The position numbers and the translations under genes are program-made. Under the pieces are notes generated by a model. The model saw only the letters and a program-made list of their open reading frames with translations. It searched no databases and was not told the DNA's origin. DNA of 32,000 bases from NCBI GenBank assembly GCA_035764875.1, contig DASTYO010000154.1:1503-33502 (forward strand), in the 5' to 3' direction. Positions 7,121 through 30,360 of this stretch are shown here, in pieces (positions within the stretch are counted from its first letter, which is position 1; each line of letters begins with the position of its first letter). This DNA is from Acidimicrobiales bacterium (GTDB lineage Bacteria > Actinomycetota > Acidimicrobiia > Acidimicrobiales > Salinilacustritrichaceae).

Positions 7121-8143
7121 ATGGCCAGCCCGATCCTGCAGACCGTGCGCCTCGGCGCGCCGCCGTGGCCCACCGTCGACCCGTTCCTGTTCTGCGTGCA
7201 CCACGTCGACGCCTACCCGGCCGGCAACCTCCACCTCGGCCCCGACGCCGACCTGCGGGGCCGCAGCATCGGCCAGGACTTCTCGGCGACCGACGGCTGG
7301 AACATGTACCACGGCTCGGTCGTGCCCGGCTTCCCCTCGCACCCGCACCGCGGCTTCGAGACCATCACGTACGTGCGGCGCGGCCTCGTCGACCACGCCG
7401 ACTCCCTCGGCGCCGCCGCCCGCTACGGCAAGGGCGACGTCCAGTGGATGACCGCCGGCCGGGGCATCCAGCACGCCGAGATGTTCCCGCTGCTCGACCC
7501 CGACGGCCCCAACCCCATGGAGCTGTTCCAGATCTGGCTCAACCTCCCCGCCGAGGACAAGATGGTCGAGCCGAGCTACAAGATGCTCTGGGACGACGAG
7601 ATCCCCCGCGTGCCGGTCGAGGGCGAGGGTGAGATCACCGTGATCGCCGGGGCCATCCCGGGGCCGTCCGGGCTCGTCGTGCCGCCGTCGCCGGCGCCCG
7701 ACTCGTGGGCCGCCCGAGCCGACACCGACGTCGCGCTGTGGCACGTCCGCCTCGGTGCCGGCGGGTCCACGGTGCTGCCGCCGGCCCGGTTCCCCGACAC
7801 CGCCCGGGTGCTCTACGTCTTCGACGGCGACGGGCTGTCCGTCGCGGGGTCGGAGCACGACGTGCCCACCGGCATCGTCGTCGACGCGGCGCAGGAGGTG
7901 CCGCTGGCGGCCGTCGGTGGCGGCGTGGACGTGCTCGTGATGCAGGGTCGGCCCATCGGCGAGCCGGTCGCCCAGTACGGCCCGTTCGTGATGAACACCA
8001 AGGCCGAGATCCAGCAGGCGTTCGAGGACTACCAGCGCGACCACTTCGGCGGCTGGCCCTGGGACCGTCCCGACCCGGTCCACGGGCGCGACCCGCAGCG
8101 CTTCGCCCGCCACGCCGACGGGCGTGAGGAGCTGGCCTCCTGA
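7121..8143 (+). CDS. pirin-family cupin protein
   Basis: HPHRGFETITYVRRGLVDHADSLG and IQHAEMFP cupin metal-site blocks typical of pirin/YhhW-like proteins. Confidence 0.9.
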   Translation: MASPILQTVRLGAPPWPTVDPFLFCVHHVDAYPAGNLHLGPDADLRGRSIGQDFSATDGWNMYHGSVVPGFPSHPHRGFETITYVRRGLVDHADSLGAAARYGKGDVQWMTAGRGIQHAEMFPLLDPDGPNPMELFQIWLNLPAEDKMVEPSYKMLWDDEIPRVPVEGEGEITVIAGAIPGPSGLVVPPSPAPDSWAARADTDVALWHVRLGAGGSTVLPPARFPDTARVLYVFDGDGLSVAGSEHDVPTGIVVDAAQEVPLAAVGGGVDVLVMQGRPIGEPVAQYGPFVMNTKAEIQQAFEDYQRDHFGGWPWDRPDPVHGRDPQRFARHADGREELAS

Positions 8144-8147
8144 TCGA

Positions 8148-9161
8148 TCAGGCGGCGGCGTCGAACTCCTGCAGCACGCGCTCGGCCTCCGGATGGGCGC
8201 CGATGCGGTCGAGCAGGACCTGGCGCTGCTGGTCGGCCTCGAGCGCCGGCTTGTCGACCACCGCCCACTTCACGAGGTCGTCCCAGAACCGGTCGATGAC
8301 CGTGGCGCCCGAGATGGTGCCCCCGTCCACCGTGCGGAACGTGCAGTGCCGGATCTCGCCCAGGTAGAGGCGCAGCGAGGACACGTGGATCTCCTCGTCG
8401 GTGCGGATCCGCCCGATGATCTCGGCGGCCTCCTCGGCCTGCGCGGCGCGCGCTCCCCACAGGTCCGGCGTGCGGAGCACGGCCTGGGTCTCCGAGAACC
8501 CGAGCTCGGCGCGGAACTCGATGAGCAGCAGGTTGGCGAGGAACGACACCAGGCCCTCGATGTCGCCCCGCAGCTCGGGGATGCGACGCTCGTCGTCGGG
8601 CCGGGCGATGGTCTCGGGCGGCTCCACGTCGGGGAAGGCACCTTCGCCGAACGCGAGGTCGCGAGCCACGAACCACATCTCGTCGTGACCGCCGATGCCC
8701 TGGTCGGGAAGGCCTCCCTCGTCGAGGCCGTGGGCGAGGAGCAGGCCCTCGTTCAGGTGCCCGATGCCCATCTCGGAGATGTCCTCGACGATCACGTCCT
8801 GCAGGTCGGGGAACGTGATGTCAGCCAGCAGGCGGCCCTTGGCCTCGATCTTGCCGATGATGGTGAGGCTGTTCCAGAACGTCTCGCCCAGGTCGTTGCG
8901 CAGCAGCACCCGCTGCTGCTCGACGTTGGGCAGGCGGGCGCCGTCGAGCAGCGATGCGTCGGCGTCGAACAGGTCGCCGCCCCGCTCCCGCAGCGCCTCG
9001 GCCCACGCGTCGACCGCGGGCGCCCGCACCGCCGTGCGCGGCGGCTGGTAGGTGCCGTCGGCGAGGAAGCCGCCGTGCATCCGACGCCCGGCCACGACCT
9101 GTGGCTCGGCGTAGTCGTGGTCGGCGAGGAGCTCGTCTCGGGTGTAGCGGAGCTTGCGCAT
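8148..9161 (-). CDS. hypothetical acidic helical protein with ExxH motif (possible di-iron/ferritin-like fold)
   Basis: ATG 9161 (MRKLRYTRDELL) with GGGGGA upstream. It is in frame with, but far shorter than, the 748-aa track ORF. High GC3. Candidate metal ligands: IEAKG, EMGIGH, IEFRAE, TDEEIH. The family assignment is a guess. Confidence 0.7.
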   Translation of the reverse strand: MRKLRYTRDELLADHDYAEPQVVAGRRMHGGFLADGTYQPPRTAVRAPAVDAWAEALRERGGDLFDADASLLDGARLPNVEQQRVLLRNDLGETFWNSLTIIGKIEAKGRLLADITFPDLQDVIVEDISEMGIGHLNEGLLLAHGLDEGGLPDQGIGGHDEMWFVARDLAFGEGAFPDVEPPETIARPDDERRIPELRGDIEGLVSFLANLLLIEFRAELGFSETQAVLRTPDLWGARAAQAEEAAEIIGRIRTDEEIHVSSLRLYLGEIRHCTFRTVDGGTISGATVIDRFWDDLVKWAVVDKPALEADQQRQVLLDRIGAHPEAERVLQEFDAAA

Positions 9162-9182
9162 GCGGGTCCCCCTGTCGCTCGT

Positions 9183-9200
9183 CTTGACCCGCCGGTCAAG
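9183..9200. promoter_or_regulatory. 18-bp palindrome in divergent promoter region
   Basis: CTTGACC-cgcc-GGTCAAG has perfect 7-bp arms. Each strand reads a TTGACC -35-like hexamer. It is centred in the 96-bp gap between the 8148-9161(-) and 9258-10367(+) genes. Confidence 0.3.
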
Positions 9201-9257
9201 GTAGCCCGTCCGGGAGCCCCCTTGCCTCCCCCGTGCCCGGGCGCGTAGGCCGGGGCG

Positions 9258-10390: not shown

Positions 10391-10690
10391 TCACGTGGAG
10401 CCGGTGACGCCCTCGACGACGTAGATCCGCGATCGCGCAGCGCCCTCACGGAGCTCCCGGATCTGGGTGTACTCCTCGCTTCGATACCACTCGAGAGCCG
10501 CTCGCTTCGTCGGGAACTCGAGGACGACGGTGCGCCCGGGCGGCGCGTCGCCCTCGAGGACCTCGATGTCGCCACCTCGGACGATGTAGCGCCCGCCGGC
10601 CGCGAGGATGCTCGAGGCCGCCGCCTGCTTGTACACCTCGTACCGCTCCGGATCTGTGACCTCGCCTTGGTAGATCACGTATGCGGACAT
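10391..10690 (-). CDS. DUF1330 domain protein
   Basis: 99 aa. MSAYVIYQGEVTDPERYEVYKQAA...VVLEFPTKRAALEWYRSEEYTQIRELR is the typical DUF1330 (dimeric alpha-beta barrel-like) pattern. Strong GGGAGGAGG SD. Confidence 0.85.
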   Translation of the reverse strand: MSAYVIYQGEVTDPERYEVYKQAAASSILAAGGRYIVRGGDIEVLEGDAPPGRTVVLEFPTKRAALEWYRSEEYTQIRELREGAARSRIYVVEGVTGST

Positions 10691-10782
10691 GCGCGCCTCC
10701 TCCCTGGTCTGTCGAGAGCCGCACCATCGTGCCTCTCGCCTCGGTCCCGATGCTCCGACGATTCCTCCACCTCGGAGCGACA

Positions 10783-10833
10783 GCCGTGGCCGCCTCGGAT
10801 GCCACGGCGGCGCACGTCACACATGTCGTGCGC
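10783..10833. promoter_or_regulatory. two back-to-back inverted repeats upstream of the AOX gene
   Basis: GCCGTGGC-10nt-GCCACGGC (10783-10808) is followed immediately by GCGCACG-10nt-CGTGCGC (10810-10833). The pair ends 45 nt before the AOX ATG. Confidence 0.3.
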
Positions 10834-10878
10834 GCTGGTGAGGTATCGACGGATCACGGCCCCGACCAGGAGGAGCCC

Positions 10879-11604
10879 ATGACCGTCGCACCCCACGCCT
10901 CCCCGGCCGGACCCGTGACCGCCGCCATCGGCGAGCGGCCGCCGTTCGGCCCGATGGAGCCGCTCGACCACGAGCGCCTCGTCGAGGAGCACCGCCGCTC
11001 CCTCGCCAGCCCCCGCCGCCGGTACTCGCGGAGCGCCCGGCTGCTCTTCGCGGTGATGGACCGCCTGTACGGCGAGGAACCCACGCTCGAGAAGTTCCGC
11101 GTCCTCGAGCTGGTGGCTCGCGTGCCGTACCAGGCGTGGGAGCACGTCGCCTACGTGGCCGTCACCCACACGGCGCGTCGGACCCGCCTCGCCCGGCGGA
11201 TCTTCGACCGCGTCCGGACCTCGCGCTTCGAGCAGGACAACGAGCAGTGGCACCTCCTGATCCTCGAGGACCTCACCGCCGGTGCGCCGCGGACCTTCGT
11301 ACGAGGCACGCTGGTGCCGCAGGTGCTGGCCTTCGCCTACTACCAGCTCTCCTGGCTGCTCTACGCGATCCGGCCCGCCTGGTCCTACCGGCTGAACGCC
11401 GACTTCGAGGACCACGCCGAGCACGAGTACGCGCACCTCGTGGCCGAGCACCCCGAGTGGGAGGACGTGCCCTACGACGGGCAGTTCACGGACGAGTTCG
11501 GCTCCTACCGGAGCCTGGCCGACCTGTTCCGCCAGATCTGCCACGACGAGCGGCTGCACAAGGAGGAGAGCGAGCTGCGGATGGCGCAACCCCGCCTCGG
11601 GTAG
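10879..11604 (+). CDS. aox: alternative oxidase (AOX/PTOX-type di-iron carboxylate quinol oxidase) family protein
   Basis: ATG 10879 follows AGGAGGAG. The four AOX iron-ligand blocks are present in order: LELVARVPY (E), DNEQWHLL (ExxH), FEDHAEHEY (E), CHDERLHKEE (ExxH). The track ORF start at 10681 is an upstream extension. Confidence 0.8.
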   Translation: MTVAPHASPAGPVTAAIGERPPFGPMEPLDHERLVEEHRRSLASPRRRYSRSARLLFAVMDRLYGEEPTLEKFRVLELVARVPYQAWEHVAYVAVTHTARRTRLARRIFDRVRTSRFEQDNEQWHLLILEDLTAGAPRTFVRGTLVPQVLAFAYYQLSWLLYAIRPAWSYRLNADFEDHAEHEYAHLVAEHPEWEDVPYDGQFTDEFGSYRSLADLFRQICHDERLHKEESELRMAQPRLG

Positions 11605-17069: not shown

Positions 17070-18065
17070 TCACAGACCGGCCTCGGTCAGCGCCGCCTCC
17101 GTGCTCGCCCGCCCCAGCGCGATGAGCTCCGGCGCCCGGTGGAACTCGAACATGCGGGCGCTGGCCTTGGGGATCTCGACGAGGACGTCGGGCGGGTAGC
17201 CGGCGAGCTTGTACGAGGTGAGGGTCGCCTGCATGACCTCGTAGGCCATGTTCACGATCTCCAGGCGACCGACGTCGGCCACGTCGACGCCGGGGGCGGG
17301 CGCCGCGGGCGTGGTGCGGTCGGCGCGGGCGAGCATGGCCCGCACCGCCTCCCAGTCGAAGAACCGGGCGGCCCGCCGGCGCAGCGTCACCGGGTCGGTG
17401 GTCGACGGGGGCCCGTCGACGGCCGGGCCCGGCTCGTCGAGCACCGGGGCGGTCACCGGACCGGACGCGCGGGTGGGGGAGTGGCGGCGGACCTCACCGG
17501 AGAGGCTCACGGCGATGGTGATGTCGGCGTGGGCGGGCAGCGTCGGCAGGATGGGCACCGGGTTCATGAGGGCGCCGTCGACGAGCAGCTGATCGCCCGA
17601 GACCACCGGCGTGAAGAGCGACGGGATGGCCACCGAGGCCCGGATGGCATCGGCGAGGCGGCCCTCCTGGAACCACACCTCACGGTGGGAGAGCACGTCG
17701 GTGGCCACCGCGGTGTAGGCGACGGGGAGGTCCTCGATCCGCATGTCGCCCACCATCTCCCGGACGATCGAGAACACCTTCTCGCCGCGGATGGCCCCGC
17801 CGGCCGAGAGGGACAGGTCGACGAGCCGCAGCACGTCGAGCTGGCGCAGGCCGGTGACCCACGCGGTGTACTCGTCGAGGCACCCGGCGGCGTGCACACC
17901 CGCCACCAGCGCGCCCATCGACGAGCCGGCGAGGGCGACGATCTCGAACCCCCGGTCGAGGATCACCTGCAGAGCACCGATGTGCGCGTAGCCCCGGGCA
18001 CCGCCGCTGCCGAGCACCACGGCTGCGGTGCGAGGACGGTCATCGGCCGCGGCCATGCCCTGCAT
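17070..18065 (-). CDS. patatin-like phospholipase
   Basis: Oxyanion GSGGARG, nucleophile elbow GSSMGA (GxSxG), catalytic Asp in DGAL. Confidence 0.9.
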   Translation of the reverse strand: MQGMAAADDRPRTAAVVLGSGGARGYAHIGALQVILDRGFEIVALAGSSMGALVAGVHAAGCLDEYTAWVTGLRQLDVLRLVDLSLSAGGAIRGEKVFSIVREMVGDMRIEDLPVAYTAVATDVLSHREVWFQEGRLADAIRASVAIPSLFTPVVSGDQLLVDGALMNPVPILPTLPAHADITIAVSLSGEVRRHSPTRASGPVTAPVLDEPGPAVDGPPSTTDPVTLRRRAARFFDWEAVRAMLARADRTTPAAPAPGVDVADVGRLEIVNMAYEVMQATLTSYKLAGYPPDVLVEIPKASARMFEFHRAPELIALGRASTEAALTEAGL

Positions 18066-18075
18066 CCTTGCCGAT

Positions 18076-18103
18076 GCGTCCGGTCGGGCGCACCGGGGGA
18101 CGC
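18076..18103. promoter_or_regulatory. imperfect inverted repeat in the 88-bp patatin/hydrogenase divergent region
   Basis: GCGTCCGGT-cgggcgc-ACC(ggg)GGACGC. The outer 6-bp arms are perfect and the inner 3 bp pair after a 3-nt bulge. It ends ~50 nt upstream of the first hydrogenase-operon gene. Confidence 0.2.
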
Positions 18104-18153
18104 ACGGTGACCTAGGGCTCTAGCGCCCGGACCGCCGTCGTTCGGACCATGAG

Positions 18154-19293
18154 GTGGTGGAACGCACGGGAGCGGGAGCACGAGCCGTCATCGATCCGGC
18201 CGGTCTGGATGCGATGCTCCGGCACCTGGCGGCCCGTGGCTACCAGCTGATCGGACCCACCGTGCGCGACGGCGCCATCGTGCACGCCCCGATCGACGGC
18301 ATCGAGGACCTGCCCGCCGGCTGGGGTGATGTGCAGTCCGCCGGCTCGTACCGCCTCCGCCGCCGGGGCGACGGAGCGCTGTTCGGCCACGCCGTCGGTC
18401 CCGAGTCGGCCCGCCGGTTCCTCACCCCGCCGACCCGAACGCTGTGGTCGGCGATCCGCACGCCCGACGGCTTCGAGGTCGAGGTCGAGGTTGCTGCGCA
18501 GCAGCAGCCGCCGGTCGCGCTGATCGGGCTGCGCCCGTGCGACCTCGCCGCGATCGCCGTGCAGGACCGCACCCTGGCCGGACCGCGCCCGGATCCCGCC
18601 TACGTCGAGGCGCGCCGGCGGAGCTTCGTCGTGGCGGTCAGCTGCTCCGACCCCGCGAGCACCTGCTTCTGCACCTCGACGGGCACCGGGCCCACCGTCG
18701 TCGGCGGGCACGACCTCGCGCTCGCGGAGCTGCTCCACCCTCGCCACCGGTTCCTGGTCGACGTCGGGACCGACGCCGGCGCGGACGTCCTCGAGGCGAT
18801 CCCGCACTCGTCGCCGTCGAGCGAGGACCTGGAGGCGGTCGCCGCAGCCGGCGACGCCGCGGTCGCCGCCATCCGTCGGCGGCTGGACCCGCGTGCCCGG
18901 GAGCTCACCGCGGCGATGGAGCACCCGCGCTGGGACGACGTCGCCGCCCGCTGCCTCTCGTGCGGGAGCTGCACGCTCGTCTGCCCGACCTGCTTCTGCA
19001 CCAGCGTCGTCGACACCACGGACCTGGCCGGGGCCCGCGCCGCCCGGGTGCAGCGGTGGGAGTCGTGCTTCGCGCTCGACCACAGCTTCGTGCACGGCGG
19101 CAGCGTGCGCGTCGACGTCCGGTCCCGCTACCGCCAGTGGCTCACGCACAAGCTCGCCACGTGGTGGGAGCAGTTCGGCATCTCGGGCTGCGTCGGCTGC
19201 GGGCGCTGCATCGCCTGGTGCCCGGCCGGCATCGACCTGACCGCCGAGGTGGCGGCCATCGTGCAGGACCACCAGCAGGAGGTGGACGCATGA
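18154..19293 (+). CDS. hyhB: [NiFe]-hydrogenase Group 3b-type beta subunit (AsrA-like 4Fe-4S protein)
   Basis: Cys clusters CSDPASTCFCTSTG, CLSCGSCTLVCPTCFC and CVGCGRCIAWCP. First gene of the overlapped operon. The symbol follows mycobacterial hyh nomenclature by analogy. The start codon (GTG 18154) is uncertain. Confidence 0.85.
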   Translation: MVERTGAGARAVIDPAGLDAMLRHLAARGYQLIGPTVRDGAIVHAPIDGIEDLPAGWGDVQSAGSYRLRRRGDGALFGHAVGPESARRFLTPPTRTLWSAIRTPDGFEVEVEVAAQQQPPVALIGLRPCDLAAIAVQDRTLAGPRPDPAYVEARRRSFVVAVSCSDPASTCFCTSTGTGPTVVGGHDLALAELLHPRHRFLVDVGTDAGADVLEAIPHSSPSSEDLEAVAAAGDAAVAAIRRRLDPRARELTAAMEHPRWDDVAARCLSCGSCTLVCPTCFCTSVVDTTDLAGARAARVQRWESCFALDHSFVHGGSVRVDVRSRYRQWLTHKLATWWEQFGISGCVGCGRCIAWCPAGIDLTAEVAAIVQDHQQEVDA

Positions 19294-19772
19294 GCACCAC
19301 GACCATCCGCGACCTCCTCGCCGACCACCGGTTCTTCGCGGGGCTGCCGGCCGCGGACCTCGACCTCATCGCGGGGTGCGGGGTGAACGTCGCGTTCCGC
19401 GCGGGTGCGATGGTGGCTCGGGAGGGCGACCCCGCCGACCGGTTCTTCGTCGTGCGCGAGGGTCATGGCGCCATCGAGGTCCACGCGCCCGGCCGGGGAG
19501 CGCTCGTGGTGGCGACCGCCGGTCCCGGTGACGTCATCGGCTGGTCGTGGCTGTTCCCGCCCCACCAGTGGCGCTTCGACGTGCGGGCCGTCACCGACGT
19601 GCGCGCCGTCGCCCTCGACGGCGCGTGCCTGCGCGGCAAGGCCGACGAGGACCCCGCGCTGGGCTACCGGCTCATGGAGCGCTTCGCCCGGATCCTGGTG
19701 TCGCGCCTGGAGTCCACGCGGCTGCAGCTCGCCGACCTGTACGGCACGGGGGAGGCGGCCGGTGTGCCGTGA
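19290..19772 (+). CDS. stand-alone cyclic-nucleotide-binding (CAP effector-like) domain protein, no HTH
   Basis: ATG 19290 overlaps the upstream stop (ATGA), with GGAGG 7 nt upstream. FFAGLPAADLDLIAGCGVNVAFRAGAMVAREGDPADRFFVVREGHGAIEV is the cNMP beta-roll pattern. 160 aa, with no DNA-binding domain. Confidence 0.85.
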   Translation: MSTTTIRDLLADHRFFAGLPAADLDLIAGCGVNVAFRAGAMVAREGDPADRFFVVREGHGAIEVHAPGRGALVVATAGPGDVIGWSWLFPPHQWRFDVRAVTDVRAVALDGACLRGKADEDPALGYRLMERFARILVSRLESTRLQLADLYGTGEAAGVP

Positions 19773-20589
19773 CGACCCGATGGTGCCCGTGCCGTACCGG
19801 GTGGCCGCCCGCCGTCCGGAGACCGGCGACGTGGTGACGCTGGACCTGGTGCCCGCGGCCGCGCCGATCCCCGACCCGGAGCCGGGGCAGTTCACGATGC
19901 TCTACGCGTTCGGCGTCGGCGAGGTGCCCATCTCGGTGAGCGGGCTGCCCGGCGACGAGGGCGTGCTCCGTCACACCATCCGCGCCGTCGGCGCGACCAC
20001 CGCGGCGCTCTCCGGCACCGAGGTCGGGCACCACGTCGGCGTGCGGGGCCCGTTCGGGCGCGGGTGGGACCTGGACGCGACCGACGGTGCCGACGTGGTC
20101 GTCGTTGCCGGCGGCCTTGGGCTCGCTCCGCTGCGTCCGGTCGTGCGGCACCTCGCCGCCGGACCCACAGGGCGGGAGCTCGCGGTGCTCGTCGGCGCAC
20201 GGTCGCCGGACGCCGTGGCGTTCGCCGGTGAGCTGGCGGGCCTGGACCGGCGAGGCGACGTGCAGTCCGCGGTCATCGTCGATGCGGCCTCCCCAGCGTG
20301 GACGGGGCCCGTGGGCGTGGTCACCGATCTGCTCGCACACGTGCAGGTCGACGTGGCGCGTGCCGTCGCCCTGGTGTGCGGTCCGGAGCCGATGATGCGG
20401 TTCGCGGCCCGGGCGCTCGAGGCGATGGGCGTGGGCCCCGAGCGCATCCAGGTGTCGCTGGAGCGCAGCATGCACTGCGGGTTGGGCCGGTGCGGCCACT
20501 GCCTGCTCGGGCCACGGTTCGTGTGCCGGGACGGGCCGGTGTTCCGCTGGAGCGACGCCGCTCCCCTCCTGGGGGTGCGAGGGCGGTGA
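19762..20589 (+). CDS. hyhG: [NiFe]-hydrogenase Group 3b-type gamma subunit (AsrB/PyrK-like FAD/NAD(P)-binding, 2Fe-2S)
   Basis: GTG 19762 has GGAGG 6 nt upstream and overlaps the cNMP-gene stop; ATG 19780 is the alternative. Ferredoxin-reductase-type FAD/NAD blocks ([21 protein letters not shown]) and the C-terminal CGLGRCGHC...C 2Fe-2S motif. Confidence 0.85.
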
Positions 20590-21371
20590 GCGCCACCAAG
20601 CCGCGCCTCGCCGTGTGGAAGTTCGCGTCCTGCGACGGATGCCAGCTGACCCTGCTCGACTGCGAGGACGAGCTCCTCGACGTCGCCGGCGAGCTCGACA
20701 TCGCCTACTTCCCCGAGGCGACCCGCGCCGTGAAGCGGGGCCCGTACGACCTGTCGCTCGTCGAAGGCTCGATCACGACGGCGGAGGACGTGGTCCGCAT
20801 CCGCGAGGTCCGGTCCGCGTCGCGGCAGCTGGTGACCATCGGCGCGTGCGCGTCCGCGGGCGGCATCCAGGCCCTCCGCGACTTCGCCGACGTCGACGCG
20901 TACCTGGCGATCGTCTACGCGACGCCGTCGTTCATCTCGACCCTGGCGACGTCGACGCCCGTCGCCGCGCACGTCCCGGTCGACTTCGAGCTGCGGGGCT
21001 GCCCCATCGACCGCCACCAGCTCCTCGACGTGATCGCCGCGTTCCTGCACGGCCGGCGACCGGACGTGCCGACCTCCAGCGTGTGCGTCGAGTGCAAGCG
21101 CCGCGGCAACGTCTGCGTCACCGTCGCCCGTGGCACCCCGTGCCTGGGCCCCATCACCCAGGCCGGGTGCGGTGCGCTGTGCCCCGCCTACCACCGAGGG
21201 TGCTACGGGTGCTTCGGTCCGGCCGAGGATCCGAACCCGCCCGCGCTGACCGTCGAGCTGCGCCGGCGCGGCCTCGCAGACCCCGACCTCGTCCGCCTGC
21301 TGCGCACCTTCAACGCCGGCGCCCGGCCGTTCCGGGACGAGAGCGAGCACCTCGCGGAGGCCGGACCATGA
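20586..21371 (+). CDS. hyhS: [NiFe]-hydrogenase small (delta) subunit
   Basis: GTGA overlap with hyhG. Proximal-cluster Cys pattern [17 protein letters not shown], plus C-terminal [11 protein letters not shown]...[24 protein letters not shown]. Confidence 0.9.
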
Positions 21372-22672
21372 CCCACCGCAGCACCGGCAGCCGCACGCTA
21401 CGCGTCGACTCCCTCGCCCGGGTCGAGGGAGAGGGTGCGATGCACGTCGACATCGTCGACGGGCGCGTGCAGGACGTGCAGCTGCGGATCTACGAGCCGC
21501 CCCGCTTCTTCGAGGCGTTCCTGCGGGGCCGCGCCCACACGGAGCCCCCCGACATCACGGCGCGGATCTGCGGCATCTGCCCCGTCGCCTACCAGATGAG
21601 CGCGTGCGCAGCGATCGAGGCAGCCTGCGAGGTCACCGTCGACGGCCCGCTCGCCGACCTCCGTCGCCTCCTCTACTGGGGCGAGTGGATCGAGAGCCAC
21701 GCCCTGCACATCCACCTCCTGCACGCGCCGGACTTCCTCGGCTACGAGGGCGGCATCGAGATGGCACAGGACCACCCGGAGGAGGTCCGCCGCGGCCTCG
21801 CGCTCAAGAAGGCGGGCAACGACCTGGTGGCGCTCGTCGGCGGCCGCCCCATCCACCCGGTGAACGTGCGCGTCGGCGGCTTCCACCGGGTCCCGACCCG
21901 CCGTGAGCTGCGGGCGTTCGCCCCCCGCCTGGAAGCCGCCCTCGAGCAGGCCATCGACGTCGTCCGCTGGGTCAGCCGCTTCGACTGCCCCGGCCCGGAT
22001 GCGGACTGGGAGCTGGTCGCGCTCCGCCACCCGGGTGAGTACGCGGTCACCCGCGGCCGCCTCGTCTCGACCGCCGGCCTCGACATCGGCGCCGACGAGC
22101 TCCTCGACCACATCGCCGAGACCCAGGTGCCGCACTCGACGGCGCTGCACGCCCACCTGCTGGAGCGGGGTGCGTACCTGGTCGGCCCGCTCGCCCGGTT
22201 CGCTCTCAACCACGACGCGCTCGCGGCGCCCGCAGCCCAGGCAGCGGCGGAGGCCGGCCTCGGTCCGGCCACCCGGGACCCCGCCCGCTCGATCGTGGTG
22301 CGCGCCGTGGAGGTCGTCCACGCCTGCGCCGACGCGCTGCGGATCATCGAGTCCTACGACGAACCGGACGCGCCCGCCGTGCCGGTCGAGCCCCGCGCCG
22401 GCGTCGGCTGCGGCTGGACGGAAGCGCCGCGCGGCCTGCTGTGGCACCGGTACCGGCTCGACGCCGACGGCACGATCCTCGAGGCGACGATCATCCCGCC
22501 CACCGCCCAGAACCAGCCGACGATCGAGCACGACCTGCTCCACTTCGTCGAGCACCACGTCGACCTGCCCGACGACGAGCTGCGCCGGGGCGCGGAGCAG
22601 CTGATCCGCGCCTACGACCCGTGCATCTCGTGCGCGACGCACTTCCTCGACCTCACGGTGCGGCGGACATGA
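21368..22672 (+). CDS. hyhL: [NiFe]-hydrogenase large (alpha) subunit, Group 3-type
   Basis: ATGA overlap, with GGAGG 7 nt upstream. RVEGEG, N-terminal Ni-Fe ligands RICGIC (Cys68/Cys71), and C-terminal DPCISCATH followed by a 9-aa tail (FLDLTVRRT) for endopeptidase removal. Confidence 0.95.
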
Positions 22673-23139
22673 GCCCCCGTGCCGTGGTCATCGGCGTCGG
22701 CAACGAGTGGCGCGGCGACGACGGTGCCGGCATCGCCGCGGCGCGGCAGGTCGGTGCCCGGCTCGCCCGGCAGGTCGTCGTCCACGAGCTCGACGGGGAG
22801 CCGGCCCGCCTGCTCGACGCCTGGGACGGCGCCGAGCTGGCCATCGTCATCGACGCCGTGCGCAGCGGCGCACCCGCCGGCAGCGTGCGCCGCATCGACG
22901 CCGCGTCGCTGGAGTCCGCCGGGACAGCGGGGAGCAGCCACGGGGGCGGGATCGGCACGGCCTACCGGCTCGGGCGCGCGCTCGGCCGGCTGCCGCAGCG
23001 GCTGGTGGTCCTCGGCATCGAGGTCGACGAGACCGCCCACGGACGCGTGCTGAGCGCCGCCGCCACCGAGGGCCTGTCGCGCGCGGCGTCCGAGGCCGTG
23101 GCGCTGGTGGAGGTGGTCGGCGCCGAGGGGAGGACGTGA
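22669..23139 (+). CDS. hydrogenase maturation endopeptidase (HoxW/HybD family)
   Basis: ATGA overlap with hyhL. VIGVGNEWRGDDGAG N-terminal motif, plus IDAV Asp and SSHGGG His blocks. Confidence 0.85.
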   Translation: MSPRAVVIGVGNEWRGDDGAGIAAARQVGARLARQVVVHELDGEPARLLDAWDGAELAIVIDAVRSGAPAGSVRRIDAASLESAGTAGSSHGGGIGTAYRLGRALGRLPQRLVVLGIEVDETAHGRVLSAAATEGLSRAASEAVALVEVVGAEGRT

Positions 23140-23384
23140 TGTGCTTCGCGCAGGTCGGCCGCGTCGTCGCCCTGGACGGCGCCGCCGGCGCGATCGTCGA
23201 CGTCGACGGCCGTCGACGACCCGTCTCGCTCGCCGCCCTCGTCCTCGACGGCACGACACCCCGGCCGGGGGACTGGCTGCTCATCCACACCGGCTTCGCG
23301 CTCGACGTGCTCGACCCGGCCGACGCCGCCGACATCGCCGCCCTCGGCCGGGAGATCCGCGCCGCCGGAAGGGAGGACCCATGA
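23139..23384 (+). CDS. hypC: hydrogenase assembly chaperone HypC/HupF family
   Basis: TGATG overlap, with GGGGAGGA upstream. Starts Met-Cys (MCFAQVGRVVAL) and contains PGDWLLIHTGFALDVLD, the HypC hallmark. 81 aa. Confidence 0.85.
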   Translation: MCFAQVGRVVALDGAAGAIVDVDGRRRPVSLAALVLDGTTPRPGDWLLIHTGFALDVLDPADAADIAALGREIRAAGREDP

Positions 23385-24310
23385 CCACCACCACTCCCGC
23401 CACGCGAACGGCCCCCATCGGACTCGGGTTGGCCGGCATGACGGCCTGCATCAGCGGCGTGTCCGTCTTCGTCAACGGCTACGGCGTCCGCCGCTGGTCG
23501 GATGCGACCGCGTACACCACGGCCAAGAACCTGATCGCCGCCCTCGTGCTCGGCTCGGTGCTCGTCGCCGTGGCGGCGACCAGGGCGCGTCCGCCGGCGG
23601 CCGCCACCCGCCGCCCTCGGGCGGCCATGCTCGCCGTCGCCGTCCTCGGTGGCAGCGTCCCGTTCGTGCTGTTCTTCGAGGGCCTGGCGCGGGCGAGCTC
23701 GCCGGACGCCGCCTTCCTGCACAAGACGCTCGTGCTGTGGGTGCCGCTGCTCGCCGTGCCGGCGCTGGGCGAGCGCACCGGAGCGCTGCACGTGGGCGCG
23801 ATCGCGCTCCTGTTCTCCGGTCAAGCCGTGCTCGCCGGTGGGGTGGACGAGATCGGTCGGGGCTCCGGTGAGGCGCTCATCCTCGCAGCCACCCTGCTCT
23901 GGGCGATCGAGACCGTCATCGCCCGCCGCCTCCTGCGCGGCAGCGTGCCGGCGCCCACGTTGGCCGTCGTGCGCATGGGCGGCGGTGTGGTGCTGCTCCT
24001 GGCGTGGGTGGCACTCCGCGGCGACATCGGCATCCTCACGGGTGCAGGGGCCGGGGCATGGGGGTGGGCGGTGCTCACCGGTGGGCTGCTCTCGCTGTAC
24101 GTGCTGGGCTGGTACGCCGCCCTGGCGCGTGCCCAGGCCGTCGACGTCACCTCCGTGCTCGTGATCGGCGCCTTGGTGACGGCGGCGCTCGACAGCGGCG
24201 TCGGTGGGGTCGCGGCACCGACGCCGGTGGCACTCGTGCTCCTCGTCGCCGGTGGGCTGCTCGCAGCGGTCGCCGCGCTCGCGGCACCGGCACGGGCGGA
24301 GGCGGCATGA
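23381..24310 (+). CDS. EamA/DMT-superfamily permease
   Basis: ATGA overlap with hypC, with GGAGG 4 nt upstream. ~10 hydrophobic helices in two halves, consistent with tandem EamA domains. 309 aa. Confidence 0.8.
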   Translation: MTTTTPATRTAPIGLGLAGMTACISGVSVFVNGYGVRRWSDATAYTTAKNLIAALVLGSVLVAVAATRARPPAAATRRPRAAMLAVAVLGGSVPFVLFFEGLARASSPDAAFLHKTLVLWVPLLAVPALGERTGALHVGAIALLFSGQAVLAGGVDEIGRGSGEALILAATLLWAIETVIARRLLRGSVPAPTLAVVRMGGGVVLLLAWVALRGDIGILTGAGAGAWGWAVLTGGLLSLYVLGWYAALARAQAVDVTSVLVIGALVTAALDSGVGGVAAPTPVALVLLVAGGLLAAVAALAAPARAEAA

Positions 24311-25089
24311 GCCGTGGTCCGGAGCCGCCCGTTCCCGGACCGCTGCTGTTCGCGCGCTTCGCCTACCCGCCGAACGAGCTCGGCCTCTGCGGCCCGGACG
24401 CCCACCGCGAGCTCCTCGAACGTGCCGACGCGAGCGTCGAGGACGGCGACCTCCGGCGACTCGCGATGGCGTTCGAGGGCGCGTGGCCCTACCTCGAGCT
24501 GATCGCCCACGAGCACGGCATCGCCGACCCGCTCGACGCGCGCGTCGTCGAGGCGTACTGGATCGGCAACCCCTTCCTCCGGGACGTCGGGATCGGCGCC
24601 GTGGGCGACTCGCTCGAGCAGCGGTTCCGTCGAGCGGTCAGCACGCGCTGGCCGCACCTGGTGGAGCTCGCGCTGGCCGGTGCCCGACCCCACCACAACT
24701 TCCACGTCTTCTGCGTCTACCCGTGGGTGGGGCTGCTCCGCACCGGTGCCACCGACCACGCGCTCCACGTGCTCGAGCGCTGCCGCATCCGCCCGGGGCG
24801 CGTCCTCCAGGTCCAGGGGCCGGAAGCGCTGGTCCGCACGCGCCCGCTCACCTGGGACGGCGCCCGACTCGGCCTCGGCCCGCCGCGCGTCGACCCGGCA
24901 CGGGTCGGCGACGCGGGCTACCACCTCGACCGCCGCATCGCCTGCGGCGACGTGGTCGCCCTCCACTGGGACTGGGCCTGCGCGCGGCTGGACGAGCGGC
25001 AGGCACGCGCGCTGCGAGCCGAGACCGCCCGCCAGCTGGCGTTCGTCAACGCGCTCACCCTGCCTGCCCCGGCGGTGGTGATCGGGTAG
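24307..25089 (+). CDS. uncharacterised protein; C-terminal ~100 aa HypC-like
   Basis: ATGA overlap with the permease gene, with GGAGG 4 nt upstream. High GC3. aa 158-260 (from nt 24778) read RCRIRPGRVLQVQG...CGDVVALHWDWACARLD, paralleling the operon HypC MCFAQVGRVVALDG...PGDWLLIHTGFALDVLD. I do not recognise the N-terminal 157 aa (LCGPD, HHNFHVFCVYPW). Confidence 0.75.
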   Translation: MSRGPEPPVPGPLLFARFAYPPNELGLCGPDAHRELLERADASVEDGDLRRLAMAFEGAWPYLELIAHEHGIADPLDARVVEAYWIGNPFLRDVGIGAVGDSLEQRFRRAVSTRWPHLVELALAGARPHHNFHVFCVYPWVGLLRTGATDHALHVLERCRIRPGRVLQVQGPEALVRTRPLTWDGARLGLGPPRVDPARVGDAGYHLDRRIACGDVVALHWDWACARLDERQARALRAETARQLAFVNALTLPAPAVVIG

Positions 25090-25578: not shown

Positions 25579-25680
25579 GTCGGCGTCCTCCTCGTCGGTT
25601 CGACACGAGCCTGCCCCATGGCCGGGGCCGGGGACCGCCTCGGTTCCCGTTCCCGGGGCTCCGGGTGCGCCGGCGCGCCC

Positions 25681-25712
25681 GGCGTCGCCGCGCCGACGCC
25701 TTGTCGTACGAC
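25681..25712. promoter_or_regulatory. hairpin plus perfect 10-bp palindrome upstream of the ECF sigma gene
   Basis: GGCGTCG-ccgcgc-CGACGCC (25681-25700), then GTCGTACGAC (25703-25712, self-complementary). It ends 31 nt before GTG 25744, in the yqeY/sigma divergent region. Confidence 0.25.
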
Positions 25713-25743
25713 CCGGCCCCGTGCACCTTTAGGTGTTGTGAGC

Positions 25744-26235
25744 GTGAAGGCGTCGCGGGACCTCGCAGGCAAGCCGTCGTCACGCGACGCGTTCGAAGAC
25801 TTCGTGGTGGCGTGCGAGCCCACGCTGCGACAGGCGCTGACGGCGATGTTCGGCATCGACGGCGGCCGCGAGGCGGCGGCCGATGCGCTCGGCTACGCCT
25901 GGGAGCACTGGGAACGAATCGCGACGATGGCCAACCCGACCGGCTACCTGTTCGTCGTGGGTCGCAACCGGCACCGTCGGGGATGGCGTGCCCGACGGTC
26001 GAGGCCCGTCTTCGACGTCGGGAGCCAGCCGTCGGAACCCTGGTGCGAACCGGCCCTCGTCGAGCAGCTGGCGCGCCTGTCCGACCGTGAACGGGTCGCG
26101 GTGCTGTTGGTGCACGGTTTCGAGTGGTCCCTGACGGAGGTCGCTGATCTGTTGGGCGTGACCAAGAGCACGGCGCAGACGCACGCCGATCGTGGGATGG
26201 CCAAGCTGCGGGCGGGCCTGGGGGTGGCGACGTGA
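25744..26235 (+). CDS. ECF-type sigma-70 family RNA polymerase sigma factor
   Basis: Region 2-like FEDFVVACEPTLRQAL...NPTGYLFVVGRNRHRR. Region 4 HTH LSDRERVAVLLVHGFEWSLTEVADLLGVTKSTAQTHADRGMAKLR. The start is GTG 25744 (AGGTG 8 nt upstream) or GTG 25738. Confidence 0.85.
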   Translation: MKASRDLAGKPSSRDAFEDFVVACEPTLRQALTAMFGIDGGREAAADALGYAWEHWERIATMANPTGYLFVVGRNRHRRGWRARRSRPVFDVGSQPSEPWCEPALVEQLARLSDRERVAVLLVHGFEWSLTEVADLLGVTKSTAQTHADRGMAKLRAGLGVAT

Positions 26236-27596
26236 CGATCACCGATCAGCTCCGAGAGGTCGCTCGCCGAGCCAACGAGAACCCGATCACGGCCGACGAG
26301 GTCCTGCGCCGGACGTCGCGTGTGGTCGCCGACCAGGCGGAGGCCCGGCTTCGGGATCCGGCCGGACGCCGAGGTCGGGCGTGGCTGGTCGCAGCTGCGG
26401 CGGTGGTCGTCTCGGCAGCGATCGTCGCGTCCGCCCTGGGCTCCGAGACGGATCGCGGCGCCGAGACCGCGACCGTCGCTCCCTCCACCACACGGCCCGA
26501 GGTCGCTCCCGCACGGCTCGCCATCCGACCCGGCTCCATCGCGTTCGCGGCCGATGCGGGCGCTGGACCGTCGCTGACGACCCCGCTGGAGTTCGCGAAG
26601 GTGGAGACCGAGCCGCAGCCCATGGACGTCTACATCACGCGCGAGGGTGAACCGACTCGGCGGTTGACCTCGAGCGAGGCACACGAGCGCTGCCCTGCGT
26701 TCTCCCCCGACGGGCGGTGGCTGGCCTACGTGGCCAGGAGCTCGAGCGGTGCTGCGTCGATCATCGTCCTGGATGTCGCCGGCGCCAGGGTCGCGGACGA
26801 TCCAGCGCTCCGCGTGGACCTCCCGCCGGGTCCGTACGGGGTGAGGAGGGCGATCGGCTCGCCGTGTCCCGAGTGGTCACCCGACAGCAGCCACCTCGCC
26901 TACCTGGCCTACACGATCAACTCCGAGACCATCCCGATCGGCCGGAAGCCGGACCTCGCCGAGCTGCGGGTCACGACGCTCGATGGGCAGGAGCGCGAGC
27001 TCACCGTCGGACGTCCCGCCCGGGGGTCGGCGCCGTTCGCATGGTCAGCGGAGGGCGATGAGATCGCCTACGTGAACGACGACGGCGTGTGGGCGGCCCA
27101 CCTGGACGGGACCCCGCCATCGCTGCTCTGGCGCCCGGCCGAGCTCCCCATGGGCGTGGCGTGGTCGTCGAGCGGCGACCTGGCGGTCACCATGTGGACG
27201 CACGCAGTCCACGTGCTGCGCGCGGGTGGGAGCACCGAGGTGGTGCCCGGGGTGATCCACGAGTACGACGGCGTCGCCGACTGGTCACCGGACGGCTCCC
27301 GGCTCGCCTTCGTGGATGCCGATGGCTCGATCGTCGTGAGCGACCGTGACGGGGACGGCGCGGCGACGCGGATGCGACCACCGAGCGTGGACGACCAGCT
27401 GGTCGACGTCTGGGACGTCGCGTGGAGCCCTGACGGGACGCGTCTGCTCGGCTTGGCGAGGTCCCCCTCGGACGGCTTCACCTTGATCTCGCTGGCGCCC
27501 GACGGTTCCGAGGCGGAGGCGCTCACGCCGTGGACCTGGGGGCTCGACCGGATCAACCTGCGCGACGTCTCGTGGCAACCGGATCACGGCGGCTGA
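26232..27596 (+). CDS. single-pass membrane protein with extracytoplasmic TolB-like (PD40/WD40-like) beta-propeller; candidate anti-sigma/sensor
   Basis: GTGA overlap with the sigma gene. TM helix AWLVAAAAVVVSAAIVASAL at about aa 50-70. Repeated FSPDGRWLAY, WSPDSSHLAY, WSPDGSRLAF and WSPDGTRLL blades. Confidence 0.85.
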   Translation: MTITDQLREVARRANENPITADEVLRRTSRVVADQAEARLRDPAGRRGRAWLVAAAAVVVSAAIVASALGSETDRGAETATVAPSTTRPEVAPARLAIRPGSIAFAADAGAGPSLTTPLEFAKVETEPQPMDVYITREGEPTRRLTSSEAHERCPAFSPDGRWLAYVARSSSGAASIIVLDVAGARVADDPALRVDLPPGPYGVRRAIGSPCPEWSPDSSHLAYLAYTINSETIPIGRKPDLAELRVTTLDGQERELTVGRPARGSAPFAWSAEGDEIAYVNDDGVWAAHLDGTPPSLLWRPAELPMGVAWSSSGDLAVTMWTHAVHVLRAGGSTEVVPGVIHEYDGVADWSPDGSRLAFVDADGSIVVSDRDGDGAATRMRPPSVDDQLVDVWDVAWSPDGTRLLGLARSPSDGFTLISLAPDGSEAEALTPWTWGLDRINLRDVSWQPDHGG

Positions 27597-27626: not shown

Positions 27627-28073
27627 ATGGATCTGCCCGCAGGCTGCCGATCCGACGAGGTGCCTGCTTCCGGCTCCGACAGCGCAGCGCCGCGTCGGCC
27701 GTCGTACGCTCGGGCACCGTCCCGACACCCGGCGGTGCCCGTGTCCCCTCGAACCCACGCAACCGGCGAGCCCGACCGTCGCCGCCCCCCGGTGCGGACC
27801 CTGCACCAGCCCGTGGGTCCGGCGCGCCTGCACGCCACCATCGCCGGGCGGGCGGTGCTCGAGGAGGCGGAGGTCGTGGAGCTCACCGACCGCACGCTGG
27901 TCGTGGAGGTGCGCGACGCCATGCTCGCCCTCGCCCTGAGCGTCGCCCACGAGGTGCAGGTCACGGTCGACCTCGGCGGTGGCGAGGCCACGCTGGTCGC
28001 CGAGCCCGGTCGTCGGGCGACGGACAACCCCACGTCGCGCCAGGTCGAGCTGGTGCTGCGCGAGCGGCGCTGA
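27627..28073 (+). CDS. hypothetical protein, possibly degenerate PilZ-like
   Basis: The 3' two-thirds (from about GTG 27792) have near-uniform G/C third positions; the 5' third is markedly less biased, so the true start is uncertain. It contains RRPPVR (RxxxR-like), then ELTDRTLVVEV where PilZ has (D/N)xSxxG. Confidence 0.5.
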   Translation: MDLPAGCRSDEVPASGSDSAAPRRPSYARAPSRHPAVPVSPRTHATGEPDRRRPPVRTLHQPVGPARLHATIAGRAVLEEAEVVELTDRTLVVEVRDAMLALALSVAHEVQVTVDLGGGEATLVAEPGRRATDNPTSRQVELVLRERR

Positions 28074-29148: not shown

Positions 29149-30360
29149 GTGCTCCATCATGGGGCGGTGCGCCGCGCCCTCGCCGCCGCGATCCTCGGGA
29201 TCAGCCTCTGGCTCGGGTCCCTGGCGTGGACCGGCTTCATCCTCACCCGCACGGTGCTCGACCCCGACCGGTCCCGGCAGGTCGCCGAGGACCTGTACGA
29301 GGACGAGGCGGTGCGCGACCAGCTGGTCGAGAACATCGCCGACGGCGTCGAGGCCGCCCTGCCGCCCGGCACCGTGCCCCGAGCAACGGTCGAGGCGGGC
29401 GCCCGCCAGACCCTGGAGTCGCCGGCGGTGGAGGCGCTCTTCGTCGACGCGTTCGTGCAGACCCACGCCGCGCTCCTCGGCGAGGGCGAGGCGCCGGAAG
29501 CCCTGGACGCCGGCGCCTTCGGGTCGGCGGCGCGGGAGTCGCTGGTGGCCGCCCACCCCGAGCTCGCGCCGTTCCTGCCCGAGGCGCCGCAGCTGGCGAT
29601 CCCCCTGCCCACCGAGCGGGTGCCCGACCTCGGTCCCGTGCGCGACGTGGTGGTGGCCGCGGTGCCCGTGCTGGCCCTGCTGTCGGCGGCGGGGGCGCTG
29701 CTCGCCCTGCTCGTGACCTCGAACCGGCCCGCGGTGGTCCGCCGGGCCGGCGTGTGGGCCATGGGGCTCGCCGCGGTGGTGCTCGCGTTCGCCTACGGCG
29801 TGCCGGCGCTGGTCCGCGAGCTGGCGCCCGACCAGGCCGAGGTCGTGGCGGCCCTGGTCGGCGCCATGGCCGCCTCGACGCGGGTCCCCGCCCTCGTCCT
29901 CGGGGCCACGGGGCTGGCCGGGGTGGTGCTGTCCGCGGTGTGGCGGGCCGCGCCGGCGCGCTCCCCCTCGCCGCCTCCGCCGCCGGTGACCTCGCCCCCG
30001 CGGCGCCGGCGGGCGGCAGGTGGCTCGCCGCCGCTGCCCCCGAGGAGGCAGCGCCAGGACCTCGAGCGCCCACCTCGGGGTGCGCCCCGTCCCCGCTCAC
30101 CTCGCTCGGCGCCGGCCCCGGCGGCGGGCGGACGCAGCGGGCCCGTCGAGGCGCCGACGCGGGTGCAGCCGGCGCCCCCACGGCAACCGCCGACGGCATC
30201 GCCGAGGCCATCGGCAGGCACGCCGGACGTGACGAGGATCGAACTGCCCGGCCGGCGGTGGGTCGACGGCGTGGGCTGGGTGGTCGACACGTCGGTGGGG
30301 GAGATCCCCGCCGACGCGCGGTGGGTTCCCGGCGTGGGTTACGTGGTGGGGGAGCCCTGA
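29149..30360 (+). CDS. membrane protein with Pro/Arg-rich linker and duplicated C-terminal W-V-x-G-V-G-(W/Y)-V-V motif
   Basis: N-terminal TM (AAAILGISLWLGSLAWTGFIL), three more hydrophobic helices around aa 165-260, then a ~110-aa P/R/S/A-rich tract, ending RRWVDGVGWVVD...ARWVPGVGYVVGEP. The start (GTG 29149 or GTG 29167) is uncertain. Confidence 0.7.
   Translation: MLHHGAVRRALAAAILGISLWLGSLAWTGFILTRTVLDPDRSRQVAEDLYEDEAVRDQLVENIADGVEAALPPGTVPRATVEAGARQTLESPAVEALFVDAFVQTHAALLGEGEAPEALDAGAFGSAARESLVAAHPELAPFLPEAPQLAIPLPTERVPDLGPVRDVVVAAVPVLALLSAAGALLALLVTSNRPAVVRRAGVWAMGLAAVVLAFAYGVPALVRELAPDQAEVVAALVGAMAASTRVPALVLGATGLAGVVLSAVWRAAPARSPSPPPPPVTSPPRRRRAAGGSPPLPPRRQRQDLERPPRGAPRPRSPRSAPAPAAGGRSGPVEAPTRVQPAPPRQPPTASPRPSAGTPDVTRIELPGRRWVDGVGWVVDTSVGEIPADARWVPGVGYVVGEP

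Follow-up and report, generated by a model that had tools for sequence, protein, structure and literature searches.

The window analysed here is a stretch of 32,000 nucleotides from an Acidimicrobiales bacterium (contig DASTYO010000154.1, positions 1,503 to 33,502), with a G+C content of 74%. On its + strand, at 18154-25089, nine open reading frames (ORFs) form one tightly packed operon for a [NiFe]-hydrogenase, its maturation factors and three further proteins. The core enzyme is ordinary; the interest lies in the last two genes, which encode an EamA permease and a protein of the family DUF6390, and above all in DUF6390, whose C-terminal domain is homologous to the maturation chaperone HypC. 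An earlier note on this DNA, made from the sequence alone, had described a nine-gene operon of overlapping genes in which a Group 3b enzyme carries three extra genes. All nine ORFs translate cleanly with the boundaries given there, and the features are as follows.

18066-18153, no strand assigned: 88-bp non-coding stretch separating the patatin gene (- strand) from the first gene of the operon, the two being divergent; presumably the promoter region
18154-19293, + strand: beta subunit (HyhB/HydB-like, AsrA-like Fe-S protein) of the diaphorase module; Pfam Fer4_22, NCBIfam
19290-19772, + strand: 160-aa CRP-type effector-domain protein lacking a DNA-binding domain, within the diaphorase gene pair; Pfam cNMP_binding
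19762-20589, + strand: gamma subunit (HyhG; FAD/NAD(P)-binding and 2Fe-2S, AsrB/PyrK-like); Pfam, NCBIfam
20586-21371, + strand: delta (small) subunit of the hydrogenase module; Pfam Oxidored_q6, NCBIfam
21368-22672, + strand: alpha (large, catalytic) subunit, Group 3b type; RICGIC and DPCISCATH motifs, NCBIfam ShyA
22669-23139, + strand: large-subunit C-terminal maturation endopeptidase; NCBIfam, Pfam HycI
23139-23384, + strand: HypC chaperone; Pfam HupF_HypC, TIGR00074
23381-24310, + strand: EamA/DMT permease with about 10 transmembrane segments; Pfam EamA, two repeats
24307-25089, + strand: DUF6390 protein, a helical N-domain followed by a HypC-like C-domain; Pfam PF19927

Every junction string named in the earlier note is present in the sequence: ATGA at 19290-19293, 21368-21371, 22669-22672, 23381-23384 and 24307-24310, GTGA at 20586-20589, and TGATG at 23137-23141. 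Two starts are possible for the gamma subunit. A GTG at 19762 follows the Shine-Dalgarno sequence GGGGGAGG and gives an 11-bp overlap with the CRP-type (cNMP) gene (19762-19772), while an ATG at 19780 leaves a 7-nt gap and lacks a Shine-Dalgarno sequence. The presence of GGAGG at most junctions likewise holds, with GGAGG-like motifs 5-12 nt before seven of the eight internal starts and the endopeptidase start as the exception. The operon is bordered upstream by the divergent patatin gene and downstream, at a distance of 34 bp, by a convergent YqeY gene. Its sole non-coding upstream gap is the 88-bp region at 18066-18153, which presumably contains the promoter; a scan for promoters and terminators gave no match, its E. 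coli-type consensus being uninformative at 74% GC. The patatin-like phospholipase gene lies directly next to the operon on the opposite strand (17070-18065, - strand), and in a Nocardioides metagenome-assembled genome (MAG) a patatin-like gene (L002 1025-1849) is likewise found upstream of the 3b operon and opposite to it in strand, with one gene in between.

Start/stop overlaps are common in high-GC operons, and another gene pair of the window has one at 26232-26235. The order of the nine genes is nevertheless more than chance, because it is found again in at least 31 species-level genomes in which most junctions again allow overlaps. Overlaps of 1 or 4 bp are possible in 29 of 32 orthologous loci for delta/alpha, 29 of 33 for alpha/protease, 25 of 27 for HypC/EamA and 20 of 35 for EamA/DUF6390, where the start codon in the other genomes was taken as the candidate nearest the upstream stop, a choice that biases toward short distances. 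The nine gene products may be co-translated. In agreement with the earlier note, the remaining ORFs of the window, searched with Pfam and tblastn, yielded neither a hypA/B/D/E/F gene nor a known Ni transporter. A search of the whole window against Rfam returned no riboswitch or other RNA family, and hence no clue from a NiCo or cobalamin riboswitch.

The gene set of the heterotetramer (alpha, delta, beta, gamma) is complete and contiguous. The best NCBIfam models of all four subunits are sulfhydrogenase ones, whose equivalog cut-offs, set with archaeal enzymes, lie far above the scores obtained here. Beta matches Pfam Fer4_22 (E 3e-30) and NCBIfam sulfhyd_HydB (133 bits), followed by ShyB and AsrA. 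Gamma matches Pfam NAD_binding_1 and DHODB_Fe-S_bind, with NCBIfam hydrogenase gamma at 168 bits and AsrB at 165 bits, and delta matches Pfam Oxidored_q6 (E 1e-22), with sulfhyd_ShyD at 161 bits and HydD at 154 bits. Alpha (Pfam NiFeSe_Hases) scores 278 bits with ShyA and 219 with HydA, versus 147 with VhuA and 137 with FrhA. Among the sequences of solved structures its best matches are the 3b enzymes (T. kodakarensis 5yxy, 218 bits; P. furiosus SHI alpha, 211-209 bits), above those of group 3c (175-161 bits, MvhA at 175), 3d (139), 3a (137 or less) and group 1 (about 107 or lower). Best match and gene set thus support the earlier assignment to Group 3b, which by class would make the enzyme cytoplasmic and NAD(P)-linked. 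Both CxxC motifs for the Ni-Fe ligands are present in alpha, RICGIC at residues 66-71 and DPCISCATH near the C-terminus. The latter is followed by a 9-residue extension, which fits maturation by the adjoining endopeptidase; the latter scores 97 bits with the NCBIfam model for hydrogenase maturation proteases (cut-off 47) and also matches Pfam HycI. HypC (Pfam HupF_HypC, E 4e-16; TIGR00074, 51 bits against a cut-off of 48) begins with MC, so that Cys2 is present. In two MAGs the 3b small and large subunits form one ORF of 712 or 700 aa (L088 5148-7286; P0167), either a fusion or an assembly indel artefact.

The same four subunit families make up sulfhydrogenases I and II of Pyrococcus furiosus and the cytosolic hydrogenase of Thermococcus kodakarensis. 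Hyd3/Hyh of Mycobacterium smegmatis (MSMEG_3931-3927) has the same order of beta, gamma, delta and alpha followed by the endopeptidase, but nothing stands between beta and gamma and neither EamA nor DUF6390 is among these genes (PMC2799521). Since all three extras are missing from the listed Hyd3 genes, they are lineage-restricted additions. The earlier note took them as undescribed, which needs correction for the cNMP gene: a cNMP-domain gene between the diaphorase genes has already been mentioned for synton-4 of Frankia (Francci3_4500-4495) (PMC11879354) and for the 3b cluster of R. equi 103S (PMC13332983). These two clusters resemble the window in this gene and in having no hypA/B/D/E/F genes, and differ from it in that the published descriptions list no hypC, EamA or DUF6390 gene (PMC11879354, PMC13332983).

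The CRP-like protein matches Pfam cNMP_binding (E 1e-14, 54 bits). It aligns only to residues 5-147 of the 227-aa regulators GlxR and Mycobacterium tuberculosis (Mtb) Crp, i.e., the effector domain and central helix, and stops at residue 160, after the central helix, so that the C-terminal helix-turn-helix (HTH) is absent. Orthologues are of the same size (30 of 31 with 154-162 aa, one with 186), none being near the length of HTH-bearing Crp. Where the phosphate-binding cassette GE..RS/TA belongs, the orthologues carry the motif GWSW..P.RW.FDARA. GELS...PRTSS of GlxR aligns to GWSW...QWRFD, with the cAMP-contacting Glu and Arg replaced by Trp, and both Trp are kept in the orthologues. The gene is found in most 3b loci and is missing from the Actinotalea-type ones. 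In one MAG contig (L087 2803-4314) beta and the cNMP domain share a single ORF of 503 aa, either a real fusion or an assembly indel. The annotation of the Frankia gene as a "small transcriptional regulator" (PMC11879354) would make this protein a cAMP-responsive transcription factor for the operon. Such a role could be read from the significant cNMP_binding match and from the similarity to GlxR and Mtb Crp, the most similar proteins, but it is very improbable for a protein that ends past the central helix, matches only residues 5-147 of the 227-aa regulators, has lost the cassette Glu and Arg and is always encoded between the two diaphorase genes, where it is kept even in a rearranged Kribbella locus and where it is possibly fused to beta. 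The label of transcriptional regulator for the 3b-operon cNMP protein is not supported, because there is no HTH and the cassette residues are replaced. Judged from sequence, the CRP-like protein most likely serves the diaphorase as a regulatory subunit that binds a ligand, rather than acting as a transcription factor.

The last gene encodes what had been described as an unknown 260-aa protein and proves to be a member of Pfam DUF6390 (PF19927; E 2e-90, 302.8 bits against a cut-off of 25, profile positions 4-240 of 244). A literature search on DUF6390 and PF19927 found no paper. An AlphaFold2 model (pLDDT 88.7, pTM 0.89) is composed of a helical domain (residues 11-159), a beta-barrel (162-228) and a helix (230-249). 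Residues kept across divergent and fused members are N23, C28, G29, D46, D74, D77, E82, Y84, W85, G87, H130, C159, R160, G164, G214, H220, W221 and C225. The conserved Cys and His of this set, in stand-alone and fused members alike, are C28, H130, C159, H220 and C225, which suggests that the protein may bind a metal, Ni or Fe. The N-domain gave only noise in Pfam (DUF7437, E 0.037) and has no detectable relative there.

Four independent comparisons link the C-domain to HypC. When the C-terminal 113 aa are searched against Pfam, HupF_HypC (PF01455) comes next after DUF6390 itself, with E 0.007 and a score below gathering (16.9 bits against 28.5). In Foldseek the top match of the model among solved structures is T. 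kodakarensis HypC (2z1c_B), with a probability of 1.00 and a TM-score, normalised to HypC, of 0.70; HypC of E. coli is among the matches too. The near-significant matches of the family profile to solved-structure sequences are to HypC only (E ~0.08), with one other at E 2.3. Aligned by hhalign to a 60-sequence HypC alignment, DUF6390 scores a probability of 93.7% (E 1.9e-7) with residues 159-238 on HypC 2-68, versus 0.8% or less for all controls (eight column shuffles, one reversed alignment and two unrelated alignments). In this alignment C159 falls on Cys2 of HypC and H220 on the His of GDW.L.H. In HypC, both residues are implicated in keeping the iron of the Fe(CN)2CO precursor bound. The C-domain is thus homologous to HypC and retains its Cys and His.

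A direct reading of this homology is that DUF6390 serves as another HypC/HupF-type chaperone, for Fe(CN)2CO or the immature large subunit, and takes no part in sensing or transport, with EamA as an unrelated hitch-hiker. The HypC-like fold, the profile match and the retained Cys and His favour such a role, and paralogues of HypC of the HupF type that carry additional segments have been described (PMC3534401). The HypC, HybG, HupF and HoxL chaperones share with the C-domain the fold, the profile match and the Cys and His equivalents. They differ in that the Cys of DUF6390 is internal, behind a 158-residue helical domain with conserved Cys and His of its own. HypC is defined by a free Cys at position 2 of the processed N-terminus, and the equivalent Cys in DUF6390 sits at residue 159 behind this conserved domain; DUF6390 is therefore HypC-like but not a HypC. 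The genomic evidence, given next, bears further on the chaperone role.

In a scan of one genome per species, at least 597 genomes were found to carry the DUF6390 family. The best-scoring 80 loci were kept, and the nine window proteins were mapped on them together with a panel of other hydrogenase-cluster proteins. The loci divide as follows.

35 of 80: EamA-DUF6390 loci, 31 with 3b genes visible and 4 on truncated contigs where only HypC or the protease is visible
3 of 80: 3b operon without EamA, DUF6390 being divergent from the 3b operon
25 of 80: group 1h-type clusters (592-aa large subunit, NifU-Rieske, DUF5947, DUF6084, HypA/B/C)
5 of 80: hyp genes only in view
12 of 80: no hydrogenase or hyp gene detected; 6 of these have full 10-kb flanks

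Hydrogenase or hyp genes thus lie within 10 kb in 64 of the 80 loci, the 4 truncated EamA loci not being counted. DUF6390 is often found directly behind hypC, hypA or hypB, and it follows hypC in another [NiFe] cluster besides the 3b and 1h-type ones. This placement in many clusters is what one would expect of a chaperone, as is a Nocardioidaceae MAG locus with two DUF6390 copies around hypC. In that locus (L061) the two genes (383-1102 and 1469-2230) flank a single hypC, and an Fbp-like ABC importer comes next. The hosts are bins assigned to Actinomycetota, Chloroflexota, Dormibacterota and a lineage of the candidate phyla radiation (CPR). The earlier note had taken the extra genes as a feature of Group 3b, a view that must be given up for DUF6390 in light of the 25 group 1h-type loci and the other [NiFe] cluster. 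The 1h-type loci of Arthrobacter and Pseudarthrobacter (L026, L037, L064 and others) contain a fixed, uncharacterised gene set between the large subunit and the protease, comprising NifU-Rieske, DUF5947, DUF6084 and a roughly 500-aa protein that matches neither Pfam nor NCBIfam; a literature search for DUF6084 gave one unrelated paper.

DUF6390 usually has a transporter gene beside it. One lies within 2.6 kb of DUF6390 in 62 of the 80 loci, of which 35 are EamA, 16 FecCD-type and 11 Fbp-like or other ABC transporters. EamA stands directly upstream of DUF6390 in its 35 loci, occurs in 3b contexts only and is found in none of the 1h-type loci. The 16 FecCD/Peripla_BP_2/ABC importers are divergent from DUF6390 and occur mostly in Arthrobacter with 1h-type clusters, while CbiMQO genes follow DUF6390 in two loci (L004 and L006). 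NCBIfam searches for the substrate of the neighbouring ABC importers gave sub-threshold matches only (AEP/Fe-type, BtuC/FecCD-type and Nik/Opp-type). Ni-type and Fe-type importers both adjoin the family, so that its ligand may be either metal.

All three extra genes recur beside related 3b hydrogenases, and rearranged loci reveal how they group. The tail of protease, HypC, EamA and DUF6390 follows the 3b genes in Actinotalea, where the cNMP gene is missing, in a Nocardioides MAG and in another MAG in which CbiMQO comes next. Kribbella sp. NPDC020789 has the genes in three units: HypC-EamA-DUF6390, gamma-cNMP-beta on the opposite strand, and a separate delta-alpha-protease. In a Gaiellaceae MAG (L058) the EamA-DUF6390 pair is kept and is divergent from the 3b operon. 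From the Kribbella split and the Gaiellaceae pair it follows that the cNMP gene goes with the diaphorase genes, and that EamA-DUF6390 is a unit with or near hypC. The operon is accordingly built from three separable gene modules, beta-X-gamma (X being the CRP-type domain), delta-alpha-endopeptidase and HypC-EamA-DUF6390, and the extra genes do not constitute the single module that had been proposed.

The sampled 3b loci are those of the closest relatives, with large subunits 65-76% identical, so some synteny by descent is expected, and reference 3b enzymes exist without these genes (PMC2799521). On this ground the three extra genes could be neutral passengers, kept by the shared ancestry of close genomes and without a role for the hydrogenase. 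That DUF6390 accompanies non-homologous cluster types (3b, 1h-type and one with a 535-aa large subunit) in several arrangements, that it is spread over bins of Actinomycetota, Chloroflexota, Dormibacterota and a CPR lineage and takes part in domain fusions, and that the modules are rearranged yet internally intact all speak against neutrality. This reading is already disfavoured and is the most improbable of those considered here.

DUF6390 also occurs in domain fusions. A profile search of 1.84 billion cluster representatives gave 1678 members at E <= 0.001, and Pfam was run on the longer ones. The fusions found were PadR+DUF6390, XRE-HTH+DUF6390, GntR+DUF6390, DUF6390+MarR, EamA+DUF6390 and a partial HypC+DUF6390. 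Since long sequences may be preferred as cluster representatives, gene-calling artefacts were considered. The repeated occurrence of the PadR, MarR and GntR fusions on many contigs led to the rejection of this explanation for them (a 15-member cluster for PadR, a 17-member cluster from many contigs for MarR, and 9 contigs for GntR); the XRE fusion has two members. An artefact may underlie the partial-HypC fusion, which is a singleton, the EamA fusion, which comes from one cluster and two contigs, and the beta-cNMP and delta-alpha fused ORFs.

The PadR, XRE and GntR fusions have ABC-importer genes directly behind them, in the vicinity of hydrogenases. PadR-DUF6390 heads an Opp/Nik-type importer operon immediately upstream of a 1h-type hydrogenase, the best NCBIfam matches of this importer (nickel_nikA and the Opp2B nickel permease) being both sub-threshold. 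XRE-DUF6390 is located between hypC and an Opp/Nik-type importer, with hydrogenase genes adjoining, and GntR-DUF6390 is the first gene of an Fbp-type importer operon that has a hydrogenase small subunit a few kb away. DUF6390-MarR stands directly behind hypC at the end of a [NiFe] cluster. The EamA+DUF6390 fusion, from a Kerfeldbacteria MAG, has as neighbours an Nramp gene and a large subunit of 3b-like type (247 bits with ShyA), and argues that the EamA and DUF6390 proteins of the window work together. Between PadR-DUF6390 and the Nik/Opp-like importer genes, two loci (L091 2972-4156 and L092 1532-2716) also encode a 394-aa protein without a Pfam or NCBIfam match, which may be part of the same system.

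A domain that recurs in fusion with DNA-binding domains of several unrelated kinds is usually one that senses a ligand. We know of no report of HypC fused to DNA-binding domains or to a permease, as DUF6390 is. For a pure chaperone, fusions to four kinds of DNA-binding domain, three of them with transporter genes next, are unexpected, and EamA would not be a mere hitch-hiker if it stays paired with DUF6390 apart from the 3b genes and also occurs fused to it. Together with the internal Cys, these observations render a second HypC/HupF-type chaperone unlikely. The HTH fusions and the conserved C28, C159, C225 and H130/H220 could also be those of a protein that holds an Fe-S cluster, responds like IscR or NsrR to O2 or redox state and adjusts the expression or maturation of the hydrogenase in aerobes. 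Most hosts are aerobic members of the Actinomycetota whose 1h and 3b enzymes are O2-tolerant, and Hyd3 of M. smegmatis is induced by hypoxia (PMC2799521). DUF6390 lacks, however, a CxxC spacing of the Fe-S type, and both the transporter adjacency in 62 of 80 loci and the regulator fusions that head importer operons suggest metal supply and not redox. A redox sensor is rather less probable than a chaperone.

NikR with nikABCDE, a one-component metal-responsive regulator of Ni import for hydrogenases or urease, offers a parallel. The HTH-DUF6390 fusions resemble NikR-type regulators in heading Nik/Opp-like or Fbp-like importer operons by hydrogenase genes. The putative sensor domain of DUF6390 is unrelated to the ACT-like domain of NikR, and the window protein differs further in having no DNA-binding domain.

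The permease itself has two Pfam EamA repeats (E 1e-15) and about 10 hydrophobic segments by hydropathy, two of the eleven peaks overlapping. Its alignment was checked for metal motifs and contains no His/Cys-rich motif, the conserved candidates being H137 and several acidic residues only, so that a metal-ion channel gains no direct support. NCBIfam returned no family for EamA or for DUF6390. EamA may act as an exporter, as the earlier note suggested, and may contact a partner protein. The two-EamA-domain permease PaCntI, exporter of the Ni/Zn metallophore pseudopaline (PMC5719457), may be compared with the window protein in its two EamA domains and its metal-acquisition context; it differs in that the window contains no metallophore synthesis genes.

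Taken together, the locus can be explained as a coupled 3b operon of three modules, in which the CRP-like protein would be a ligand-binding regulatory subunit of the diaphorase and DUF6390 a domain devoted to [NiFe]-hydrogenases that binds a metal (Ni or Fe) and either senses it or hands it on. In its fusions with DNA-binding domains, DUF6390 would control transporter operons beside hydrogenase genes; as a stand-alone protein coupled to EamA, it would link the cargo of EamA, a metal or metal chelate, to the maturation of the large subunit by HypC. We regard this explanation as a whole as having an even chance of being right. The bolder proposal, that DUF6390 is a new class of HypC-derived metal sensor or hand-off protein that couples importers, or permeases such as EamA, and transcription to maturation, and that EamA is a new type of carrier, is tentative and somewhat doubtful.

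A number of observations count against the sensor or hand-off role. The function proposed for DUF6390 is built on homology, conserved residues, neighbourhood, fusions and structure prediction. The 80 loci are the closest relatives among the at least 597 genomes, with distant members outside the sample, and six of them have full flanks but no hydrogenase gene within 10 kb. The neighbouring transporters are mixed (Ni-like, Fe-like and DMT), and their nickel-transporter matches in NCBIfam are all under the curated cut-offs. EamA/DMT proteins are typically metabolite carriers, and PaCntI, the sole metal-related EamA precedent found, is a metallophore exporter (PMC5719457). The EamA and beta-cNMP fusions each come from one sequence cluster, and the contig of the latter may carry an indel error. 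Finally, Hyd3 of M. smegmatis and the 3b enzymes of Pyrococcus work without these genes in their clusters.

Elsewhere in the window, an extracytoplasmic function (ECF)-type sigma factor gene (Sigma70_r4_2) overlaps by 4 bp the gene of a 454-aa PD40/WD40 beta-propeller protein (25618-27596), a possible sigma/anti-sigma pair. A 307-aa ORF at 10681-11604 has a modest match to alternative oxidase (AOX; E 1e-11), and three sizeable ORFs (8124-9245, 27627-28070 and 29149-30357) have a coding-like G+C content at third codon positions (GC3) and no Pfam match.

For annotation, the 3b-operon "cNMP transcriptional regulator" is corrected to a protein that lacks a DNA-binding domain, and DUF6390 gains a working annotation. 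From its sequences, the DUF6390 domain is related to HypC, widespread and unstudied; it is linked with [NiFe]-hydrogenase clusters, transporters and one-component regulators, and probably binds metal. If the proposed role is true, it would read or carry the Ni or Fe bound for the NiFe(CN)2CO cofactor in Actinomycetota and neighbouring phyla, and EamA would represent a new type of carrier, for a metal or its chelate, that serves Group 3b enzymes. Metal supply and regulation are poorly known for the H2-cycling hydrogenases (1h, 2a and 3b) of aerobic soil and water Actinomycetota, and even for E. coli there is continuing debate about where the iron of the Fe(CN)2CO group comes from (PMC10847431). 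Found in at least 597 species, HypC-related, rich in Cys and His, and tied to importers and to four kinds of DNA-binding domain, DUF6390 provides a testable handle on both metal supply and the iron source.

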